DNA of 59,259 bases, the filler included. It is 5 parts of 5 records of this genome, joined end to end, with 100 filler letters (N's around TTAATTAATTAA, not from the genome) between each part and the next. Parts side by side here need not be neighbours in the genome. Positions count along the whole stretch, not along the records: positions 23,814 to 37,543 come from SRR20825019_2429; 4 more parts are not named here. One strand, 5' to 3'. This document shows positions 4,448 through 31,245 of the stretch, piece by piece (position 1 is the stretch's first letter; the number at the start of each line of letters is the position of its first letter). The notes below the pieces were generated by a model, which searched no databases, was not told the DNA's origin, and worked only from the letters and a program-made list of their open reading frames with translations. Made by a program: the position numbers and the translations under genes.

Positions 4448-5806
4448 ATGATGCGGACCCTATTTGCACGGGCTTCTGTCCCGTTTCTGGTTTTCGCCAC
4501 CCTCCTGCTGGTACGGCCGGGCATGGCGGAGGCCATCGAGATCCAGCGTGTGGTCAGCCCCGGCGGCATCGAGGCCTGGCTGGTCGAGGATCACAAGAAC
4601 CCGATCATCACGCTCTCCGCCAGTTTTGAAGGCGGTGCGGCGGCAGATCCGGAAGGCAAGGAAGGTCTCGCCGTGCTGACCTCCAGCCTGCTGGATGAAG
4701 GCGCCGGGTCCTATGACAGCGATGCTTTCCGGCGCAAGCTGGAGGATCTGGTGATCGGTCTTGGCTTCAGTGCGGGCCAGGACAATTTCGGCGCCAGCCT
4801 GCAGACCCTGACCGAAAATACCGATACGGCCTTTGAGCTGCTGCGGCTGGCCATGACAGAGCCGCGGTTCGATGCCGAGCCGGTGGAGCGTATCCGGGCG
4901 CAGATCATCGCCGGGCTGAAGCGCAGCGAGAACCGGCCGCAGACCATCGTCAGCCGGGTCTGGTGGCAGGCGGCTTTCCCGGACCATCCCTATGGCCGTC
5001 CCTCCCGGGGCACTGTGGACAGTGTCGGGCGGATCACAACGGAAGACATGAAGGCTTTCGCCAATCGGGTGCTGACCCGGAGCGGGATGAAGATCGGCGT
5101 TGTCGGCGATATCACGTCGGAGCGACTGGGCACCCTGCTGGACAGGACCTTCGGGGCTTTGCCGGAGACGGGTGTTTCGATTCCGCCGGTGCCGGCGAAA
5201 CCGGCAGCCATCGGGGAGACCTTCGTGGTCGAGAGCCCGGTGCCGCAATCGGTCGTCGTGTTCGGCCATCGCGGCATCGCGCGGGATGATCCGGACAGGT
5301 TCGCCGCCGCCATCCTGATGGAAGTCATGGCCGGTGGTTTCGGCTCCCGCCTGACCGAGGAAATTCGTGAGAAACGCGGCCTGACATACGGCATCTATGC
5401 CTACACGCTCCCCCTTGAAGACACGGAGCTGGTGATGGGCGGGGTCTCGACCCGGAATGACAAGGTCGCCGAGACGGTGGGGCTTGTGCGCGAGATCTGG
5501 GCGGAGATGGCGGCGAACGGGCCGACCGAAGAAGAAGTGAGCGACGCCAAGACATATCTCAACGGCTCTTTCCCGATGCGCCTGACGAGTTCCCGGCCGA
5601 TTGCCGGGTTGCTGGTCTCACTGCAGCGGAACGGGCGGCCCATCGATTATCTGGACGGGCGGGTTGAGCGGATCAATGCGGTCACGATGGCGGATTTGAA
5701 GCGGGTGGCGAAGCGGCTGTTTCTGGCGGACGAGCTGACCTTTTCCGTGGTTGGCCAGCCAAAGGGCGTGACGCCCACGGCGTCGGCGCCTGAACCGAGA
5801 TCCTGA
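4448..5806 (+). CDS. M16B peptidase-like partner subunit lacking HxxEH
   Basis: GIEAWLVED and SRLTEEIREKRGLTYG motifs; no HxxEH; tandem with the catalytic subunit. Confidence 0.92.
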   Translation: MMRTLFARASVPFLVFATLLLVRPGMAEAIEIQRVVSPGGIEAWLVEDHKNPIITLSASFEGGAAADPEGKEGLAVLTSSLLDEGAGSYDSDAFRRKLEDLVIGLGFSAGQDNFGASLQTLTENTDTAFELLRLAMTEPRFDAEPVERIRAQIIAGLKRSENRPQTIVSRVWWQAAFPDHPYGRPSRGTVDSVGRITTEDMKAFANRVLTRSGMKIGVVGDITSERLGTLLDRTFGALPETGVSIPPVPAKPAAIGETFVVESPVPQSVVVFGHRGIARDDPDRFAAAILMEVMAGGFGSRLTEEIREKRGLTYGIYAYTLPLEDTELVMGGVSTRNDKVAETVGLVREIWAEMAANGPTEEEVSDAKTYLNGSFPMRLTSSRPIAGLLVSLQRNGRPIDYLDGRVERINAVTMADLKRVAKRLFLADELTFSVVGQPKGVTPTASAPEPRS

Positions 5807-22628: not shown

Positions 22629-23108
22629 TCAAAGCCAGCGCCGTGTCCTGGCCGCGTAATCCAGATAAGTTTGCCCGAAGGCGGCCTCAAGGCGGCGTTC
22701 CTCTACCGGAATGACCAGACGGTCAAGTGCCAGACAGAGCAAAGGCATCAGAACCACGCCCCAGTCCAGGCTGAACGCGATCATCACGCCCGTCATCAGC
22801 AACAGGATGCCGCAATAGAACGGATTGCGCGACCAACGGAAGACTCCACTGGTCACAAGTGCGGCAGGAGCGTCGTTGGGCCGCGTCGAGGCACCGCCAT
22901 TTGTCAACGCCCTGGCAGCTGCCACCTCAAGCGCCAGACCGGCGAAAACTAACCCAAATGCCAGGAGGTTGAGTGGCTCCCACCAGTCAGCTGGCGGCAG
23001 TATTGCCAGAGGTAGCAACCGTTCAAGCAGAATGGCGCCGGCCAGCAAGAGAAGCACATAGCCATCTGGGGGGACAAGCATGGTTGAGGGTAGCGCTGTC
23101 TTTGCCAT
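22629..23108 (-). CDS. Isoprenylcysteine carboxyl methyltransferase / PEMT family membrane protein
   Basis: LVTSGVFRWSRNPFY and EERRLEAAFG..Y..Y...TRRWL motifs. Confidence 0.88.
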   Translation of the reverse strand: MAKTALPSTMLVPPDGYVLLLLAGAILLERLLPLAILPPADWWEPLNLLAFGLVFAGLALEVAAARALTNGGASTRPNDAPAALVTSGVFRWSRNPFYCGILLLMTGVMIAFSLDWGVVLMPLLCLALDRLVIPVEERRLEAAFGQTYLDYAARTRRWL

Positions 23109-23151
23109 GGCTCCCGCATAGGCCGGGCCGCGCGCCCAGGCAATCCATTGA

Positions 23152-23165
23152 CTGATCTGGATCAA
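23152..23165 (+). promoter_or_regulatory. FixK/FNR-type box upstream of the USP gene
   Basis: CTGAT-ctgg-ATCAA, one mismatch to TTGAT-N4-ATCAA, about 60 bp before the start codon. Confidence 0.65.
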
Positions 23166-23225
23166 AGCGTGATGCCATGCGTTGATGCAGTGTGGGAACA
23201 CAAACAAGCGTCAAGGGAGTTCGCC

Positions 23226-23675
23226 ATGTATTCCAATATCGTGTGCGGTGTCGACGGTTCCGATCTCGCCAACAAGGCATTGCGCCATGCGCTGGCGTTG
23301 GCCGCCAAGACGGGCGGCAAGGTAACCGCCGTGACTGTGACAGAGCCATCGATCATCGTTGCGCCGGGCGCCGAGATCATGATGGTCGATACCAGCTCAA
23401 TCATCGAGGATCTCGACAAGGCCAAGGAAGAAACAGCCAAGGGTATTCTGGCCGATGCGGAAAAGATCGCCGGGGAAACCGGTGCGCACCTCGCCCAGAT
23501 GCATGTGGCCAACAGCCACGCGGCCGAAGGCATTCTGCACGCCGCCAAGGAGACTTCCGCGGATCTGGTGGTAATGGGCTCGCATGGCCGGCGGGGCCTG
23601 GGGCGCCTGCTGCTGGGCAGCCAGGCCGCCGAGGTGCTGGCCCATGCCGATATGCCGGTTCTGGTGGTGAAATAG
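23226..23675 (+). CDS. Universal stress protein
   Basis: IVCGVDGS and DLVVMGSHGRRGLGRLLLGSQAAEVL motifs. Confidence 0.95.
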   Translation: MYSNIVCGVDGSDLANKALRHALALAAKTGGKVTAVTVTEPSIIVAPGAEIMMVDTSSIIEDLDKAKEETAKGILADAEKIAGETGAHLAQMHVANSHAAEGILHAAKETSADLVVMGSHGRRGLGRLLLGSQAAEVLAHADMPVLVVK

Positions 23676-23713: not shown

Positions 23714-23813
23714 NNNNNNNNNNNNNNNNNNNNNNNNNNNNNNNNNNNNNNNNNNNNTTAATTAATTAANNNNNNNNNNNNNNNNNNNNNNNNNNNNNNN
23801 NNNNNNNNNNNNN
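23714..23813. other. Artificial contig-joining spacer
   Basis: N44-TTAATTAATTAA-N44. Confidence 0.99.
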
Positions 23814-23844
23814 CTCGAGGGTTCGAATCCCTCCGGCTCCGCCA
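23814..23844 (+). tRNA. 3' fragment of a tRNA, probably tRNA-Ser (truncated at contig start)
   Basis: T-arm GAGGG-TTCGAAT-CCCTC, acceptor strand CGGCTCC, discriminator G, CCA; anticodon not visible. Confidence 0.8.
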
Positions 23845-23912
23845 TATATTCATAAAGCATCTGAGAAACACAACAATCCTATGCGCGCTTACTCCTGCTG
23901 AGGAGCCAGGGT

Positions 23913-25187
23913 TCAGCTCCGCCGCGCCCGATACACCCTGTATGACCAGAAGACTGCCATAGCCGTGATGACCAGCCAACCAAGCAGGATGGCTTTAATC
24001 ATCTGCCCCATGCCTGCCAGGAAATCGAAGAGATCGACATTCCCTGTTCTCCAGAATGTCCACTCGCCAGCCAACTCGGTCGCCAACAGGGTATTCCCGG
24101 TCTCAAGAATAACGATGCCATCTCCCGAGGCAGGGTCAAACCGTGCAGTCGTATTGATCGCGGGTTCGTTTTTACCGTCATGTCCGACTATAAAATCACC
24201 CTTGTTGTTGGGGGCATACAGAACGGTTCCCAACCCCCATATGTCCGCGCCTGCTTGTGACGCATGAGGCTGACGCATCAACGCCACGGTCTCGGGAGTG
24301 AGGACACCTCTCCCCGCAGAGCGATCATTCAGCGGGAAATGTGCGTTAATAAAAGTCACCATGTCCTGGGCGCTGGTATAAAGCGATGTCGCGGCCAGCG
24401 ATGTGAATTTATAGTGTGTGGCATAGCTGCCGTCCTGATCATATATCTCAGCAATATCCGATGCTGGCAGCCCGTCGGTAATATATGTCGACCTGGTCAT
24501 TCCAAGCGGCTTGAAAACATGGTCTCGCATGTAGTCGTTGAACGACATGCCAGAGACCTCTTCGACGATAAGCTGGAGCAAGGTATAACCGCCGCCGGAA
24601 TATCTGTAGGCAACACCCGGCTGCATCCCTACTTTGACAACACCGGTTTTCCCCGGTGAGGCGTCCGACGCCTTTGTGAGCGATTCTTCCAGCGACTGCA
24701 CCTCTCCGTTAGGCAGGAACCCACCATAGCCCAGGTCGTCCGTCAGGCCCGCCGTGTGGCTGAGCAATCTCCGCACCGTCACGCCGCTGTTATCATAATC
24801 ACTGGGCGGGAGATGCCACCGCGTGAGATATCTGGATACAGGAGCATCCAGATCCAACAAACCCGCATCCACGAGGGACAAAACGCCCCAGGCTGATACC
24901 CACTTGCTCAAAGATGCGACTTGAAAAAGCGTATCTCTGTCGACGGCCCTGCCCACCGAGCTATAGTGCTCGTCATATATCTGGTTCTGCTTAATCAATA
25001 CAAAGGCCGCATTGCCGTTGGAACGCTCACTGATCGCCCCAACGCCTGCGGCCCAAAAGCCCTTGATGTCTTCGTCTGCGGCGATCGGTGAACGCCACCA
25101 ACCTTCGGTCGCGCCAACAGCGACTACACCCGCCCAAACCATGCCGCCAACGATTGCTGCCAGCAAAATACCCAGATATTTTTTCAC
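23913..25187 (-). CDS. Membrane-anchored serine hydrolase, beta-lactamase class C / S12 fold
   Basis: FQVASLSK (SxxK), LLSHTAG, YSGGGY and GHDG motifs; hydrophobic N- and C-terminal helices; GAGG RBS before GTG 25187. Confidence 0.9.
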   Translation of the reverse strand: MKKYLGILLAAIVGGMVWAGVVAVGATEGWWRSPIAADEDIKGFWAAGVGAISERSNGNAAFVLIKQNQIYDEHYSSVGRAVDRDTLFQVASLSKWVSAWGVLSLVDAGLLDLDAPVSRYLTRWHLPPSDYDNSGVTVRRLLSHTAGLTDDLGYGGFLPNGEVQSLEESLTKASDASPGKTGVVKVGMQPGVAYRYSGGGYTLLQLIVEEVSGMSFNDYMRDHVFKPLGMTRSTYITDGLPASDIAEIYDQDGSYATHYKFTSLAATSLYTSAQDMVTFINAHFPLNDRSAGRGVLTPETVALMRQPHASQAGADIWGLGTVLYAPNNKGDFIVGHDGKNEPAINTTARFDPASGDGIVILETGNTLLATELAGEWTFWRTGNVDLFDFLAGMGQMIKAILLGWLVITAMAVFWSYRVYRARRS

Positions 25188-25267
25188 AATACTTATCCTC
25201 GGTGTTTTTCCATTTGCACTCAAGTTCTATACGAGCCCCTGTTTTTCAACAATAATTGGCCCAAAGA

Positions 25268-25300
25268 TCGATAAACGGTGGTTTTGATTCGTTAAGTGGT
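25268..25300 (-). promoter_or_regulatory. LytTR-type imperfect direct repeat with 21-bp period
   Basis: Minus strand ACCACTTAACGA-N9-ACCGTTTATCGA, upstream of the hydrolase gene. Confidence 0.65.
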
Positions 25301-25341
25301 ATTAGAGGTACGGTAGGGAAACAAAGGCCGTGGGGGCATCA

Positions 25342-26853
25342 ATGAAGTCTACACTCTGGATATGCACGCTCCTCTTCTGGCTTTTTTGCTCGGCGCCCGG
25401 TATTGCTGGCAACCAGATGATAGAAATTGGGTCACTGACCACCTGTGCCGCCCCAACAGAGATCGACCTGGATAGTATTTTTCAGACCCCCGCCTGCCGG
25501 GAACAAGTCGTCAGGGATATTGACCTGGTCAACCAAAATGTTTGGGCAAGGACGCATCTCCAAATTAAGAAGACAAACGCAGCGTTGGGATTATTCATAT
25601 CCGGAAGCGCTTCAACTGCGGTCTATTTGAATGGTGCGTTTATCGGCCAGAACGGCGAGCCGGGCAAAAACCGAGGGACAGAGATTCCCGGGAAGATGGA
25701 CAGCGTTATCTATCTCCCACCGCACCTGCTGAAGGACGGCGAAAACAGCATCACGCTCCACCTTTCCAGCCACCATGGTTTTTTAGGTTTGCAGCGCCCC
25801 CTTCACCGGATCCACATCGGTCCCTATTCCTTGCCAACAGGCAACATATTGCGGCGCTATTTGCCCTCATTACTGAGCTTCGGGGTCTTCCTCGCAGGTA
25901 GCTTTTATTTTGGTGGGATGGCTTTGCGAAGCTTTGACAGGACCGGATCGTTATTGTTGAGCCTGATGTCCTTTTCCGCGCTGGGACAGCTGAGTGCGGA
26001 GGTCTGGCGAGGTGTGAGCGCTTACGCCTACCCCGTACATGAAGTTCGTCTACTTCTTATCCTGTTTTTCGCCCTTGGCTTTGGCTTCTGTGTCACCGCT
26101 TACATTCACCACCGGTTGGGAAGGACCAAGTGGTGGAAACCGTGTGCTTTCATCGCTGTCATGACCATCGTTATCACCGCGGCCATGCCTGGGTATGACA
26201 CCAAAACCATTACTGCCATTCTGGCGCCCACGCTTCTGAACGCAGGGTATCTACTGTGCCTGCTCATCGGCAAACGGCTAACCCACCCCAGTTATCTCGC
26301 CGCCCTACTACTTTTTTTTGCAGCTGTTTTCTTTTCCCCGACGGAATTTCTGGACGTGTCTTTCTACTATATTCTGGCGAGCCTGCTGTCGTTTCTCTTT
26401 ATCCGGCAAGCCCGTTATTTTGCTGAAGAACGGCGACAGCGAATTGATGAGACCGCACGAGCACAACGCTTGGCGGATACACTGAAAAGAGCGCAAAAAG
26501 GCGCTGCAATGGACAACATCACCATTACCAACAAAGGCAAACTGGAGTTGGTCACAACCGAAGCTCTCGTCTACGGCAAGGGTGCCGGCGACTATGTAGA
26601 ACTCCACTTCAAAGCCCAGAAAAACTATAAGCTATACAGTGGTTCCGTTGGTCAGCTTGAGCACAACCTGCCCCTGACCTTCGTGCGCGTACACCGCTCG
26701 TATATCGTCAATACTGCTTATGTAAAAGGGCTCGTATCCGTGGAAAAGGGCGGCGGCAAACTGGAACTGACCGGCAACATACAAGTTCCGGTCAGCCGCA
26801 GGATCATGCCAAAGGTGCGCGCCCTGCTGGAAAACAGCTCAGCAAAGGCCTAG
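25342..26853 (+). CDS. Membrane one-component regulator: extracytoplasmic beta-domain + about 7 TM helices + LytTR DNA-binding domain
   Basis: Signal peptide; VYLNG...LKDGENSITL jelly-roll-like segment; hydrophobic helices; C-terminal GDYVELH...FVRVHRSYIVN...VPVSRR. Confidence 0.88.
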   Translation: MKSTLWICTLLFWLFCSAPGIAGNQMIEIGSLTTCAAPTEIDLDSIFQTPACREQVVRDIDLVNQNVWARTHLQIKKTNAALGLFISGSASTAVYLNGAFIGQNGEPGKNRGTEIPGKMDSVIYLPPHLLKDGENSITLHLSSHHGFLGLQRPLHRIHIGPYSLPTGNILRRYLPSLLSFGVFLAGSFYFGGMALRSFDRTGSLLLSLMSFSALGQLSAEVWRGVSAYAYPVHEVRLLLILFFALGFGFCVTAYIHHRLGRTKWWKPCAFIAVMTIVITAAMPGYDTKTITAILAPTLLNAGYLLCLLIGKRLTHPSYLAALLLFFAAVFFSPTEFLDVSFYYILASLLSFLFIRQARYFAEERRQRIDETARAQRLADTLKRAQKGAAMDNITITNKGKLELVTTEALVYGKGAGDYVELHFKAQKNYKLYSGSVGQLEHNLPLTFVRVHRSYIVNTAYVKGLVSVEKGGGKLELTGNIQVPVSRRIMPKVRALLENSSAKA

Positions 26854-27000: not shown

Positions 27001-29283
27001 CTAATTTGTGTAATAGTTGCTCTTGCCGCCGTAATAATAGCCTTGGTCACCATAGCCGTAACCACGATGCCGCTTCACATCAACCTGCGTAAGCACAGCG
27101 CCCGCGATCGGTACACCAGTTTGTTGCAGCTGCTTCACAGCGGTTTTAACGATGCCCTTGGCGGTCGATTCCCACTGCACAACAAACATGATGCTCTCGG
27201 CATATTTAGCGATGATCAATGCATCAGCAACTGCCATAACCGGCGGCGTATCGATCAGCACCAGATCATACTGTTTACGCGCTTCACCAAGGAACTGATT
27301 AAACTCAGGGCCCGCGAAACGTTTCTGCGGGTTATCGTCACGTTCCGCCCACAACACATGAACGCCGGACGTTTCATCCTGATAGATCGAACCACCGGAT
27401 TTGGTGGCCTTGCCGTTCAGCACGCTGTTCAGGCTGACATATTTACCCTCGTCAAGGCCGAGCCGCTTCCGAAGAACCGGGCGTCTCAAGTCAGCCTCAA
27501 CAACCAGGACCTTCAGCCCTGTGCGGCCAAGGATGTGCGCGAGACAAAGCGTAGCTGTTGACTTGCCTTCCCCCGGAATAGATGACGTAACAGCCAGCAC
27601 CTTTGGTGTCGCACCGCCAGCGCCACTGAACATCAGGGACGCATGAATGCTGCGGTGCGCTTCCGCGAAAGACGAGGTTGGTTTAGACACGATATATTTC
27701 TCGGGCCCCCCGCTTTGCAACACAGCTTTGCCCACAAGCGGGATCATGCCAAGTGGCCTGAGGTGCAGGTCTTGCCGAAGGATATCAGGGCTACGGTACC
27801 CGTTATCAAGCGCCTCCAGAAGGAAGGCAAGGCCGACACCAACGCCAACACCCGCAAACGCCACGAGCAGAAGGATCAGTTTCTTTTTAGGGAAGGATGC
27901 GATGGTGGGGATATCCGCTTCCGAAATGATACGGGCATCCGCCTGCTGCATACCGTCCTGGCTGGAGGTTTCCTTGAAGCGGGTCAGGAAGGTTTGAAGA
28001 AGCAGCCGGTTGGCTTCTGCTTCACGGTCCAGCTCTCGCATTTGCACTTGCGCGCGGCTGACGGTAAAGCTCTCTTGTTTAAGCCCATCCATGTTCTGCT
28101 CAAGCGTGCGCACACGAATTTCTGCGACCTCAGCCTCACCGCGGATACCCGCGACGATCTTGTTGATCTCAAGCGTGATCTTGTTCTTGATGTCCGCAAG
28201 CTCGGCCTCCACATTCATCATGCGTGGGTGCTTGGGACCATAACGGGTGCCAAGTTCCGCACGGCGACGCCGCACTTCCGATTCCTGTTCCTTGAGGCGC
28301 TGGATCAGCGGCGACTGCACCACCTCCAAAAGCCCTGAATCCTCAATATCACCATCAACGACATTCTGCTCGATCTGGCGTTGACGCGCTTGAACACGAG
28401 CCAGATCTGTTCGCGCGGTAACAAGCTGTGTATTCAACTGAGCCAGCTGTTGCTCGTTCACAAGGCCGGCTGATTGGGTCTGAATAAGCTGGTTGTCCTC
28501 CCGGAAGCGTTGCGCGGCTTGCTCAGACTGCCGCACTTTCTCACGAAGCTCAAAAACCCGCTCGTTCAACCACTCGTTCGCACGCTGCGTGGCTTCAAAC
28601 TTCACCTCCAGCTGGTCTGTCAGGTAAAGATTGGCAAGCGCGTTCGCGACACGTGCCGCTTTTTTTGGGTCAACCGATACAAATGACACCTGCAAAGTAT
28701 ATGATCGTGGCGGGTTACTCACCGCAAGACCGGTTGAGACATTATTGATAACCTTGGCGCGCACAGCGTGAGCGATTTCTTCCGGTGTGCGTGTATCCTC
28801 CTTGCGGCCTAGAATAGCGTCACTCCAGGCGTCAGGCAGGTAGCTAAAAGGATTGAGATAGGACAGCAGACTTTTTTTCTGATCCAGCTCGGGGTTGAAC
28901 TCCGGATCCTGAACGAGCTTGAGATTATCAACCAACTTGCCAACAAGCCTGCGCGACATAAGCACATCGATCTCAGTCTTGATCGCCGCCTGGTCTGTAC
29001 CAACACCAGACATCACGGCCTCAAGGTCAACGACACTGTTTTTACGTGTCTCGATCGCCAGCATTGCTTCAGCGGTGTAGCGCGGGGTCAGTTGGAAAAC
29101 AACGATCGCTGAGAGAACAATAAGAAACACGGCCGTGTTAACAATCACCCATTTTCGCCGCCACAATACCAGCAGGAGCGCGCGAATATCGATCTCACTG
29201 TCATCCAGCGGGCTTTGCTGGTTCTGCGGCACCGTTGGCGTTCGGTGTTCTTGGTCTGAATAATGATTGTCGTACATGGTCAC
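27001..29283 (-). CDS. wzc: Polysaccharide co-polymerase / BY-kinase (Wzc/GumC type)
   Basis: Wzz-like N-terminus EIDIRALL..LWRRK; coiled coil; Walker A GEGKS; DTPP; C-terminal Tyr cluster GYGYGDQGYYYG...YY. Confidence 0.93.
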   Translation of the reverse strand: MTMYDNHYSDQEHRTPTVPQNQQSPLDDSEIDIRALLLVLWRRKWVIVNTAVFLIVLSAIVVFQLTPRYTAEAMLAIETRKNSVVDLEAVMSGVGTDQAAIKTEIDVLMSRRLVGKLVDNLKLVQDPEFNPELDQKKSLLSYLNPFSYLPDAWSDAILGRKEDTRTPEEIAHAVRAKVINNVSTGLAVSNPPRSYTLQVSFVSVDPKKAARVANALANLYLTDQLEVKFEATQRANEWLNERVFELREKVRQSEQAAQRFREDNQLIQTQSAGLVNEQQLAQLNTQLVTARTDLARVQARQRQIEQNVVDGDIEDSGLLEVVQSPLIQRLKEQESEVRRRRAELGTRYGPKHPRMMNVEAELADIKNKITLEINKIVAGIRGEAEVAEIRVRTLEQNMDGLKQESFTVSRAQVQMRELDREAEANRLLLQTFLTRFKETSSQDGMQQADARIISEADIPTIASFPKKKLILLLVAFAGVGVGVGLAFLLEALDNGYRSPDILRQDLHLRPLGMIPLVGKAVLQSGGPEKYIVSKPTSSFAEAHRSIHASLMFSGAGGATPKVLAVTSSIPGEGKSTATLCLAHILGRTGLKVLVVEADLRRPVLRKRLGLDEGKYVSLNSVLNGKATKSGGSIYQDETSGVHVLWAERDDNPQKRFAGPEFNQFLGEARKQYDLVLIDTPPVMAVADALIIAKYAESIMFVVQWESTAKGIVKTAVKQLQQTGVPIAGAVLTQVDVKRHRGYGYGDQGYYYGGKSNYYTN

Positions 29284-29334
29284 AACCTAAACATCACCGG
29301 TCGACTATGATAAGCCTCCGGCGACGGCCTGAAA

Positions 29335-29901
29335 TTAGAAGAAGCGTTCCGGTACGCGAATGATATCTCCGGGCAGTACCAGTGTGGTGTCTTCGACGGT
29401 GATTTTTGTCTCTACCCCATCAACCCGGCGGGTGATGACAATTTTTTTCTCGTTCGCCCGATAAGTGAACCCTGATGCAAGCGCAATAGCGTTGAGAACT
29501 GTCATACTGTTCACATAGGGATAGCTGCCGGGCTTCTTCACTTCACCGAGAATATAAAACGGCCGATAGTTCAGCACCTCAATGCTGACCCGCGGATTGA
29601 CAAGATATCCATCCGCCAGCTTTGCGCTGATTAACTGTTCTGCAATCGCGAGATCGCGACCACCGATATTGACCGGTCCGATGAGCGGCAGAGCAACAAT
29701 ACCGGTGCCATCTAATTCAAATTCACCGGAAAGATCTTCTTCACCATAAACAATGACCCGGATCTTATCGCCAGAGCCAAGTTCATACCGTTCCACGTCA
29801 AGCGCCGGCGGTGTCGCTGGGCTCGATTGCGCATAAACAGTTTGGGCGAGCCCCATAAGGCTCGCCACACATAAGATTATCAAAACGCGAATTGTCTGCA
29901 T
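29335..29901 (-). CDS. Short polysaccharide export (OPX/Wza-like) protein
   Basis: YELGSGDKIRV Poly_export motif plus one SLBB domain; about 190 aa; no lipobox and no C-terminal outer-membrane helix. Confidence 0.9.
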   Translation of the reverse strand: MQTIRVLIILCVASLMGLAQTVYAQSSPATPPALDVERYELGSGDKIRVIVYGEEDLSGEFELDGTGIVALPLIGPVNIGGRDLAIAEQLISAKLADGYLVNPRVSIEVLNYRPFYILGEVKKPGSYPYVNSMTVLNAIALASGFTYRANEKKIVITRRVDGVETKITVEDTTLVLPGDIIRVPERFF

Positions 29902-29952
29902 TACCTCAACCAATGATTACTAACTGAACGCTCTATTGATCGAGGAGTATAC

Positions 29953-31245
29953 TTACCATTGACCCTTGATACCAACCATAAACGAATGACGCTCATAATC
30001 CTGGCCTTGCTGCGTCGTGCCGCGGTAGTCGTAACCATAACCCGCGTTCACATTAAAGTTCCGGCTAACCAGATATTTGAGGCCAAGTTTCGCACCCCAG
30101 ATTTCGTCTTCACGCGTGGTAAGTTCGAAATTCTGGCGAGTATAGCTCACGTCCGCATTCAAAAGCAGGTTGCGGCGTAGTTCATGCTCAACCCGACCGG
30201 ACACGAGCGTGGCAACGATACCGGAAGAATTGACAAAATTGCCGTTGCTATCGTTACCGCCAACTGTCGTCTCTTCGATCGACCGTTTCAGCGTGCCGCG
30301 GAATGATGTCAGGCCGGTCGCATTCCACAACAGGTCCGCGCCAAAGTTGATGCCGTCCGTGTTGTTGAGCGTATCCGAATCATAAGCGCGTTTCATGTAC
30401 CCGACATAAAACTCGCCTTTTGCTTTACCGGTAAAATCGAAAGCAGCACCTGCAACAGCTTCGTAACCATCAGAGTTACGCTGTGGGCCACCATCTTCTT
30501 TCGAATTGTCATATTCGATGCGGTCCATGGAACCACGGACAAAAGCTTCGTAACCGTTGGCCATTTCATAACCAACACGCATTGTGCCTTTGCGACGATC
30601 ACGGTCACGGTCATCATTGTTAAGAACACCACCGCCATTGAGCGCTACATCATCAAAATCACGCTTTACATACTCAGCGTCCACCGCGAATGACAGAATG
30701 GATACATCGCGCTTGAAGCCAACCGACGCCGTCATGACGGAAAGCTGGGTCTGCTCAGCAGCGTTACCAACAGCATCCGGTGAACCGCGATCCTCATGTT
30801 TCTGATCATAAGCCACGTTGCCGTGGAAATCAGTGCCGTAGGAAAGATCTTTCCGGCCATTGATGGCAAAACCATAATCTTCGTAGTTTTCGCCACCATT
30901 ATCGAGGTAACGACCGATATCTGCTTTTGCAGAAACAGCGAGGTAGCTCGAGTTCCAGTCGGAAACGAGATTGAAATTAGGTTTCACAACAGCGATGAAA
31001 TCGTCTGTCACGTTGCTTTCTTGAGCATAAATGTTTGAGTTGTATTTACCTTCAACACCAACGGCTGGGTAAAACAGGAAGCTGCCAGAGCGAATGCCCG
31101 GCGCATCATAATCTGGCCGTGCACGGTCATAAACAGACTTCACTTCATCACCTTCCGCAGCGGCATCCTGCGCAAATGCTGCAGGCGCAAGTGCGGTGCT
31201 GCCAAGCAGCATGGTGGCCAAAATCATGGTCTTTTGATTTTTCAT
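29953..31245 (-). CDS. Outer-membrane beta-barrel protein associated with polysaccharide export
   Basis: Signal peptide; RARPDYDAPGIR..F..YP N-terminus; amphipathic strands; terminal aromatic residue W; upstream of OPX and wzc. Confidence 0.85.
   Translation of the reverse strand: MKNQKTMILATMLLGSTALAPAAFAQDAAAEGDEVKSVYDRARPDYDAPGIRSGSFLFYPAVGVEGKYNSNIYAQESNVTDDFIAVVKPNFNLVSDWNSSYLAVSAKADIGRYLDNGGENYEDYGFAINGRKDLSYGTDFHGNVAYDQKHEDRGSPDAVGNAAEQTQLSVMTASVGFKRDVSILSFAVDAEYVKRDFDDVALNGGGVLNNDDRDRDRRKGTMRVGYEMANGYEAFVRGSMDRIEYDNSKEDGGPQRNSDGYEAVAGAAFDFTGKAKGEFYVGYMKRAYDSDTLNNTDGINFGADLLWNATGLTSFRGTLKRSIEETTVGGNDSNGNFVNSSGIVATLVSGRVEHELRRNLLLNADVSYTRQNFELTTREDEIWGAKLGLKYLVSRNFNVNAGYGYDYRGTTQQGQDYERHSFMVGIKGQW

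Follow-up and report, generated by a model that had tools for sequence, protein, structure and literature searches.

A putative seven-transmembrane receptor-regulator with a LytTR output domain and its recurrent pairing with divergent exported serine hydrolases

In a 59,259-nucleotide stretch of DNA (the window; filler included), we found a gene for a membrane protein ending in a LytTR DNA-binding domain, head-to-head with a gene for a beta-lactamase-fold serine hydrolase. We propose that the first protein, here called the regulator, is a membrane one-component seven-transmembrane (7TM) receptor-regulator that would regulate its own gene and probably control that of the divergent exported hydrolase, and that it is the fused counterpart of a LytS-type two-component system; we put the probability of this reading at about 0.6. 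LytTR regulators control virulence, competence, bacteriocins, and biofilms, and to our knowledge studies of them have dealt almost entirely with soluble response regulators. HigX (2026), the one membrane-bound LytTR regulator studied, has no sensor domain. New in the present case is a real extracytoplasmic sensor domain together with a 7TM receptor fused directly to LytTR. The pairing with a hydrolase recurs across many marine and soil bacteria and points to an unstudied route for sensing the outside and switching on an enzyme.

Domain architecture of the regulator

Open reading frame (ORF) analysis of the window recovered both genes as complete, divergent ORFs with exactly the limits given in a first-pass annotation of this DNA (Table 1). 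The regulator is identical to a 503-aa database protein from a Kordiimonas sp. (P0001), and its true start is therefore likely ATG 25342. That entry is named "LytR/AlgR family response regulator transcription factor", a misnomer for these proteins, given that they lack a receiver domain. LytTR (PF04397) was the sole Pfam family in the regulator, covering residues 405-500 with 55.1 bits against a cut-off of 22.6. Neither Pfam nor NCBIfam gave a receiver or kinase family, and PF00072 had no match. The NCBIfam BtsR model matched residues 377-500 only (29.5 bits against a cut-off of 246), and the LytR model was likewise limited to these residues, far under its cut-off. Pfam also returned no penicillin-binding or protease domain in the sensor. 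With transmembrane (TM) segments and a DNA-binding domain, and without a phosphorelay domain, the protein falls within the broad definition of transmembrane one-component regulators.

An AlphaFold2 model built on 35 homologues (mean pLDDT 90.8, pTM 0.74) contained a hydrophobic helix at residues 3-20, an all-beta domain at about 30-165, seven helices at 180-365, and a LytTR fold at 396-506, with one unbroken helix (343-392) making up both TM7 and the linker. The signal peptide was called from hydropathy and this model, and the aligned homologues also start with a comparable hydrophobic N terminus. The first-pass annotation had described a signal peptide, a jelly-roll with a Cys pair, seven TM helices, a linker, and LytTR, with no receiver or kinase, all on one polypeptide; Pfam, NCBIfam, and AlphaFold2 together bear this out. 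It had also suggested a structural check of the periplasmic domain. Modelled alone, the ectodomain reached a pLDDT of 92.6 and a pTM of 0.87, and VIA-align superposed it on the N-terminal sugar-binding domains of GH2 enzymes (Z 12-13, rmsd 2.6-3.0, 122-133 of 145 residues) and on the RetS sensor domain 2xbz (Z 8.2, rmsd 3.5, 111 residues aligned). Foldseek agreed, with GH2 enzymes as its top matches, and the jelly-roll was confirmed.

Conservation is concentrated in recognizable places. C39 and C56 were invariant in 35 of 35 aligned homologues, as were G106, G109, P111, E118, G121, D124, and S146 elsewhere in the ectodomain, whose conserved motifs read NG-PG...E-PG-MD and LSSHHG. The membrane part has conserved polar residues (E224, R227, Y232, Y234, P235, R240, D290, K292, and F340-D342), all of which the model places on the periplasmic face, at helix ends or in periplasmic loops. 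We infer from the model that these residues may form a signal-receiving surface beneath the ectodomain. Positive charges (Lys and Arg) are spread as expected for an N-out, C-in protein with an exported ectodomain and a cytoplasmic LytTR domain, with 17 predicted to face the cytoplasm and 3 the periplasm. For the LytTR part, Foldseek gave TM-scores to target of 0.79-0.82 (3d6w, 0.82; AgrA) and also matched ComE LytTR domains, and the motifs HRS and PVSRR were invariant in the aligned homologues. A complex prediction with two copies of residues 28-507 scored 0.02 against a mark of 0.32, a result that is silent either way on dimerization.

The regulator belongs to a large unnamed family. A whole-protein search gave at least 184 relatives at E <= 0.001; 120 were listed, all with PF04397, and among these listed matches query coverage was 81-99%. 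Listed genera include Kordiimonas, Hyphococcus, Amphiplicatus, Asticcacaulis, Hyphobacterium, Sphingorhabdus, Thermomonas, Marinicella, Paraglaciecola, and Arenicella, among others. Searching with the sensor and TM part alone (residues 1-397) gave matches to 616 clusters (50% identity, E <= 0.001), and 433 of them reached E <= 1e-10. We typed the outputs of the best 150 of these 616 clusters with local hidden Markov models built from Pfam-typed proteins: the C-terminal output is LytTR in 118 and a LytS-type His_kinase domain (PF06580) in 22, and the remaining 10 are truncated. Among sampled genomes the sensor module is sparse, being present in 2 of 401 alphaproteobacterial genomes with the window query (E <= 1e-10) and in 11 of 401 Pseudomonadota genomes with a kinase-type query (E <= 1e-8).

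Pairing with divergent serine hydrolases

The sensor gene was divergent from an exported serine hydrolase gene in 36 of 36 loci, that is, in the window and in 35 related loci with readable upstream DNA. The first-pass annotation had singled out a failure of this pairing to be conserved as the outcome that would speak against its proposal, and every one of the 35 informative related loci was paired. The S12 identity that it gave to the partner held for the window and for 12 of the 36 loci overall (PF00144, window included); the other 24 have an unrelated TAP/Hip1-like alpha/beta hydrolase (PF00561, often with TAP-like PF08386). Every partner carries an export signal, a lipobox, or a TM anchor, and the closest solved structures to the alpha/beta partners are the mycobacterial Hip1/CaeA serine protease-esterases. 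The remaining flanking genes vary between loci.

These loci came from several sources. A first scan of genome contigs used LytTR-domain patterns, and 72 of its 80 loci were LytTR relatives only. It yielded eight full-length relatives, one of them cut by a contig end (L007); all seven with upstream context were paired, two with PF00144 (Pseudoalteromonas) and five with PF00561 plus PF08386 (Maricaulis twice, Asticcacaulis, a Kangiellaceae metagenome-assembled genome, and Allosphingosinicella). Three further copies, namely second copies in two first-scan genomes and one more distant homologue, were paired as well. A scan of metagenome contigs with a sensor-only alignment of four sequences gave 19 loci, three without upstream DNA and 16 with context, and all 16 were paired (11 alpha/beta, 5 PF00144). 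The sample of 401 Pseudomonadota genomes added nine new loci, again all paired. The paired loci cover Alpha- and Gammaproteobacteria as well as paralogous pairs inside single genomes. Two genomes, G004 (L006, L108) and G005 (L010, L107), contain two sensor-hydrolase pairs each, and the two pairs of G004 differ in their partner, which is alpha/beta in one and PF00144 in the other. On the sensor tree, partner type takes four changes, at least two of which are forced by well-supported branches.

The same enzymes also accompany a two-component form of the sensor. In four of the nine sampled Pseudomonadota loci, the same jelly-roll and 7TM module is fused to a LytS-type kinase, with a REC-LytTR gene directly after it. 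In each of the four, a divergent hydrolase gene again faces the sensor gene, and it encodes an alpha/beta enzyme in two loci and a PF00144 enzyme in the other two. The four kinase-type sensors form one clade in the sensor tree (support 96/90). Because these kinase-fused loci keep the same hydrolase partners, the sensor module and the enzyme are the linked parts whatever the wiring, and the LytTR-fused form is a phosphorelay-free version of the same circuit. When kinase-type relatives were compared by tblastn with the LytTR-only loci, kinase domains alone matched; the kinases of those loci therefore have other sensors. Separately, four LytTR-only loci (L040, L046, L062, and L064; Sphingobacterium, Flavobacteriaceae, Parapedobacter, and Croceivirga) have PF00144-like genes within a few kilobases of unrelated LytTR regulators (tblastn with the window hydrolase as query, E 1e-7 to 1e-13), and for this reason the link between LytTR and hydrolases may reach beyond the jelly-roll/7TM sensor family.

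Could the adjacency be no more than inherited gene order, with no functional link and with the intergenic repeats described below arising by chance or within lineages? It is true that related marine Alpha- and Gammaproteobacteria supplied many of the loci and that some loci are nearly identical. Against this, 36 of 36 loci are paired, including the paralogues within one genome (two pairs each in G004 and G005); the pairing covers two signalling architectures and two unrelated enzyme folds while other flanking genes differ; and the repeats were recovered in loci outside the training set. We regard mere inheritance, already disfavoured, as very improbable.

The hydrolase of the window scored 165.2 bits with PF00144 (cut-off 27), so that the head-to-head arrangement with a beta-lactamase-fold hydrolase was confirmed with its coordinates. 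Its sequence suggests an exported or membrane-tethered serine hydrolase of the S12 family, and its true start is likely a GTG near 25187. Hydropathy shows hydrophobic segments at both ends (residues 18-36 and 408-426), so the catalytic domain would be tethered on the outside of the inner membrane. Among the partners whose termini were examined, it is the only one with anchoring predicted at both ends. Its closest solved relatives are Pab87 (2qmi, E 9.6e-21), the R61 DD-peptidase, alkaline D-peptidase, and EstB/family VIII esterases. The partner of the kinase-type sensor at L128 (3332-4816, minus strand) shares 46.7% identity with it, compared to 15-23% for other S12 partners.

Such an enzyme brings to mind a sensor of envelope or cell wall damage on the lines of BlaR/BlaZ or AmpG/AmpR, which would detect beta-lactams or peptidoglycan fragments and induce a penicillin-recognizing enzyme. 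The window partner is indeed a member of the penicillin-recognizing S12 family with DD-peptidases among its relatives, and it has the motifs SxxK and HxG; moreover, HigX targets are tied to the cell envelope (PMC13384398). However, two thirds of the partners are TAP/Hip1-like alpha/beta hydrolases without a penicillin-binding fold, and the sensor has no penicillin-binding or protease domain by Pfam. The window hydrolase was under every NCBIfam beta-lactamase cut-off (bla_class_C, 42 bits against 415), and in its motifs SLSK stands for SxxK, YSG replaces YxN, and HDG (HxG) replaces KTG; by score and motifs it is not a class C enzyme. Alignment of nine S12 partners showed SxxK and the motif-2 Tyr retained in all nine and the Asn of YxN missing in eight, and these partners are far under the class C cut-offs. 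We therefore consider a damage sensor quite improbable, and the BlaR/BlaZ analogy drawn in the first-pass annotation survives in its logic only.

Candidate operator and proposed signal path

The intergenic region shared by the two genes contains a pair of direct repeats with 21-bp spacing (about ATCGGTNAACGG), which in the window read TC-GATAAACGG (25268-25278) and TC-GTTAAGTGG (25289-25299). AgrA, ComE, and other LytTR regulators use 9-bp direct repeats with a period of about 21 bp. The pair emerged when 14 non-redundant divergent intergenic regions were searched by Gibbs sampling for two copies of a 9-mer at a fixed distance. The search scored 7.11 bits at 21 bp compared to 4.46-4.91 at 19, 20, 22, and 23 bp, and none of 25 dinucleotide-shuffled sets reached this score (4.41 +/- 0.12, maximum 4.75). 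Thirteen of the 14 candidate sites share one orientation, and anchoring on the sites gives a repeat unit of about aTC-GGtNAACGG, occurring twice. With a leave-one-out matrix, 25270-25299 ranked first among 118,460 window positions (18.5 bits, against 14.3 for the next). In 12 loci that had not been used for training (about 22,000 positions), the matrix placed a site of first or second rank at the 5' end of the sensor gene in four one-component loci (16.6-22.0 bits). A simpler pattern, ARYGG-N16-ARYGG, was rejected as too loose, with four window matches against 2.9 expected.

The repeats stand in a recurrent geometry with the regulator gene. In 11 of 16 motif-bearing loci, 36-38 nt separate repeat 2 from the start codon, a count for which the starts of L121, L124, and L093 were re-read by eye. 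Eight of the 16 have a TAnnnT element 23-26 nt past repeat 2, with the start codon coming 5-8 nt after the element. A consensus scan of 25100-25450 found no sigma-70 promoter and no terminator, and the missing consensus promoter fits dependence on an activator. We infer an activator-dependent promoter abutting the repeats and a leaderless or very short-leadered regulator mRNA, so that the regulator would control its own gene. The hydrolase gene could plausibly be controlled from the same predicted site. Two further arrangements were observed. L121 has a second, equally strong repeat pair (22.0 bits; reverse-complement coordinates 4956-4985) in the opposite orientation, about 120 bp downstream of the first and inside the 5' coding region of the regulator. 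In L006, the divergent intergenic region is 316 bp long (5487-5802) and contains LytTR-type repeats along with other short repeated units (TGTCTGTAAT, TTTATAACAAG) nearer the hydrolase.

From these elements we propose the following signal path for the membrane receptor-regulator. An N-out seven-helix receptor would hold the periplasmic jelly-roll, with its last helix serving as the cytoplasmic linker into LytTR. The ectodomain and the outer face of the 7TM bundle would receive a periplasmic signal and relay it via TM7 and the linker helix. Two membrane-held LytTR domains would dimerize and bind both direct repeats, and this binding would be expected to activate the regulator's own promoter, probably a leaderless or short-leadered one, and most likely the divergent exported hydrolase gene too. 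The first-pass annotation had cast the protein as a sensor-activator that induces the hydrolase; LytTR-type repeats in the shared region agree with this, while the conserved geometry argues first for autoregulation, and it is from synteny that induction of the hydrolase is deduced.

Several observations weigh against this reading. No element on the hydrolase side of the repeats was conserved at a fixed distance in the anchored comparison, and the distance from the repeats to the hydrolase start is 44-98 bp in most loci and 184 and 252 bp in two. Since there is no fixed geometry towards the hydrolase, the site may serve the regulator promoter only. The matrix scan found no motif in four of eight independent one-component loci and in all four two-component loci, and two of the 14 training sites (L004 and L010) are weak. 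The window itself departs from the common geometry, with a start codon 42 nt after repeat 2, a -10-like TACGGT only 9 nt after repeat 2, and a G-rich stretch before the ATG; gene starts in other loci are longest-ORF guesses, few of them corrected by eye. In addition, metagenome loci L089-L092 are near-identical and L084-L086 resemble L001/L002, so that the independent cases of pairing number fewer than 36. Finally, the closest folds to the ectodomain are sugar-binding domains, a poor obvious fit to a peptide or ester ligand.

The same geometry bears on an alternative in which the hydrolase is the input. Here the enzyme would release or trim an extracellular compound that yields the 7TM ligand, or would take part in sensing, and LytTR would mainly autoregulate and control unlinked genes. 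That the sole fixed geometry is with the regulator start codon, and that the distance between repeats and hydrolase varies from 44 to 252 bp, would suit this alternative; so would the export of all partners to the compartment of the ectodomain and the persistence of the pairing through exchange of the output domain, as expected for an enzyme working with the sensor module. Two unrelated enzyme folds have, however, been swapped at least twice in the same position, which argues against a conserved physical interface, and a divergent pair that shares about 110-150 bp of control DNA with one operator is the classic layout of a regulator and its target. We judge this alternative unlikely, and note that the roles of input and target are not exclusive. 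Docking of the hydrolase on the sensor was ranked low, given the two unrelated folds in the partner position.

What the proposed receptor-regulator would detect is a matter for guesswork, and our guess is a compound, for instance a peptide or an ester, that the partner hydrolase either acts on or produces. A bolder version, which we offer tentatively and hold to be less probable than its opposite, is that the jelly-roll and 7TM module is a dedicated receptor for that substrate or product, for example unusual peptides or esters of marine organic matter. The jelly-roll/7TM-LytTR proteins and their kinase-fused sisters would then be a widespread, unrecognized class of bacterial 7TM receptors, in which one sensor drives transcription either directly, through a membrane-held LytTR domain and a leaderless autoregulated promoter, or via a phosphorelay. 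They would also offer a matched pair for studying signalling from a 7TM receptor to DNA without a second messenger or phosphotransfer.

Table 1. Features of the divergent locus and its convergent neighbours, in window coordinates.
Feature	Position	Strand	Basis or remarks
Serine hydrolase ORF	23913..25223	-	436 aa, longest ORF
Putative LytTR operator, two direct repeats, 21-bp period	25268..25299	+	Gibbs search and matrix scan
Regulator ORF	25330..26853	+	507 aa, longest ORF
N-terminal hydrophobic signal sequence, residues 5-27	25342..25410	+	Hydropathy peak 9-27; model helix 3-20
Predicted periplasmic jelly-roll ectodomain, galactose-binding-domain-like fold, residues 28-179	25411..25866	+	Model and fold comparison
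Predicted seven-helix transmembrane bundle, residues 180-365	25867..26424	+	AlphaFold2 model
Predicted cytoplasmic charged linker helix prolonging TM7, residues 366-392	26425..26505	+	Model; K+R 8, D+E 5
LytTR DNA-binding domain, residues 393-507, and stop codon	26506..26853	+	PF04397, 55.1 bits
Wzc-like protein, Wzz + GNVR + AAA_31	within 27001-31245	-	760 aa
Wza-like protein, Poly_export + SLBB	within 27001-31245	-	192 aa
BBP2 beta-barrel porin	within 27001-31245	-	430 aa

The two genes stand at the start of the right-hand piece of this part of the window. A run of N's with a central ttaattaattaa spacer (23714-23813) ends about 100 bp left of the hydrolase stop codon, which means that the window was joined here from two pieces and that genes on either side need not be neighbours. 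G+C is about 50-55% from 24 kb to 34 kb, compared to 60-67% left of the spacer. The first bases of the right-hand piece (23814-23845, plus strand) look by eye like the 3' end of a tRNA (GGTTCGAATCC T-arm, acceptor stem, and CCA) cut by the end of the piece; neither ARAGORN nor Rfam called a tRNA there. Convergent with the regulator lies a polysaccharide export set identified with Pfam (Table 1). The left-hand piece carries a PEMT/ICMT-like membrane methyltransferase (22629-23207, minus strand) divergent from a universal stress protein (23148-23675, plus strand).

Relation to known membrane and LytTR regulators

The first-pass annotation knew of no characterized example of such an arrangement; a simpler characterized relative in kind is HigX. 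HigX (CCNA_03131) of Caulobacter crescentus is a transmembrane LytTR transcription factor (PMC13384398, PLoS Genet 2026) and is the closest characterized system. It acts on DNA from the membrane, showing that a membrane-bound LytTR protein can do so, and across Alphaproteobacteria its gene "almost universally" adjoins a divergent gene for an uncharacterized COG4188 hydrolase (PMC13384398). HigX and the regulator have in common a single chain with N-terminal TM helices, a C-terminal LytTR domain, and no receiver. They differ in that HigX has four TM helices and no periplasmic domain, whereas the regulator has seven and a 150-residue jelly-roll ectodomain; in the partner, which is of the COG4188 type for HigX and S12 or TAP-like (PF00144 or PF00561/PF08386) in the regulator family; and in the DNA site, an 8-bp inverted-repeat motif from chromatin immunoprecipitation sequencing (ChIP-seq) for HigX against predicted direct repeats with a 21-bp period. 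We set the regulator apart from HigX on the basis of these descriptions. Membrane-bound LytTR proteins were noted as early as the definition of the domain, as cited in PMC13384398 and PMC10269533. The former states that alphaproteobacterial membrane LytTR proteins lack periplasmic domains usable as extracellular sensors; the jelly-roll/7TM-LytTR family is an exception to that statement.

LytSR, BtsSR/YehUT, and AlgZ/AlgR share the output domain, and the kinase-type sisters of the regulator carry PF06580 and adjoin REC-LytTR regulators. BtsS is reported as a 7TM receptor in PMC10653868, which also mentions 7TMR-DISM receptors. Unlike LytS/LytTR systems, the regulator has neither kinase nor receiver, the phosphorelay being bypassed by direct fusion. 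The inputs differ as well: LytS and BtsS have 5TM-Lyt/GAF, the regulator a jelly-roll plus 7TM.

7TMR-DISM receptors with DISMED2, such as RetS, combine a signal peptide, a beta-sandwich ectodomain, seven TM helices, and a cytoplasmic output. The regulator resembles them in plan, but its ectodomain matches the RetS domain at Z 8.2 and GH2 N-terminal domains at Z 12-13. PF07695 and PF07696 did not match the window protein even at E <= 10, nor did Pfam match DISMED1 or DISMED2. A scan of 46 relatives gave PF07695 scores of 19.6-23.1 bits, below the cut-off of 29, in five, each of them of the kinase type; one Atlas cluster has PF07695 on 11% of its members; and hhalign against five bona fide 7TMR-DISM members gave a probability of 27.7% (E 6.4e-4). 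Our literature search found no paper linking LytTR to the 7TMR-DISM family, nor did it turn up any account of a protein that joins an ectodomain and 7TM part to LytTR, or of a connection between such a protein and S12/TAP-like hydrolases.

Among other one-component regulators, the ToxR/CadC type (surveyed in PMC10269533) and BcrR resemble the regulator in detecting signals outside or within the membrane and in binding DNA from a membrane-anchored position. ToxR and CadC have one TM helix and BcrR has four, with an N-terminal winged-helix/HTH domain, in contrast to seven helices and a C-terminal LytTR domain here. HdrRM and BrsRM likewise have a LytTR protein that lacks a receiver and is controlled at the membrane (PMC6193735). 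There, the LytTR protein is soluble and is sequestered by a small membrane protein encoded separately, whereas in the regulator a membrane receptor with an ectodomain and LytTR make up one chain; correspondingly, the layout of the window is not of the HdrRM type, its LytTR domain being fused to the membrane part and its downstream gene being the convergent Wzc-like one.

With a strictly conserved hydrolase partner of two folds, a predicted operator geometry, and a sister two-component form, all in non-pathogenic marine bacteria, the family makes a testable system. Work on it could reveal the means by which a DNA-binding domain is controlled directly by a 7TM receptor, the reason why one- and two-component wiring interchange, and the signal that governs common exported enzymes of peptidase- or esterase-like character. 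That a membrane LytTR factor can stand beside a divergent hydrolase was already known from HigX; what differs here is the receptor part, the partner families, and the type of operator.

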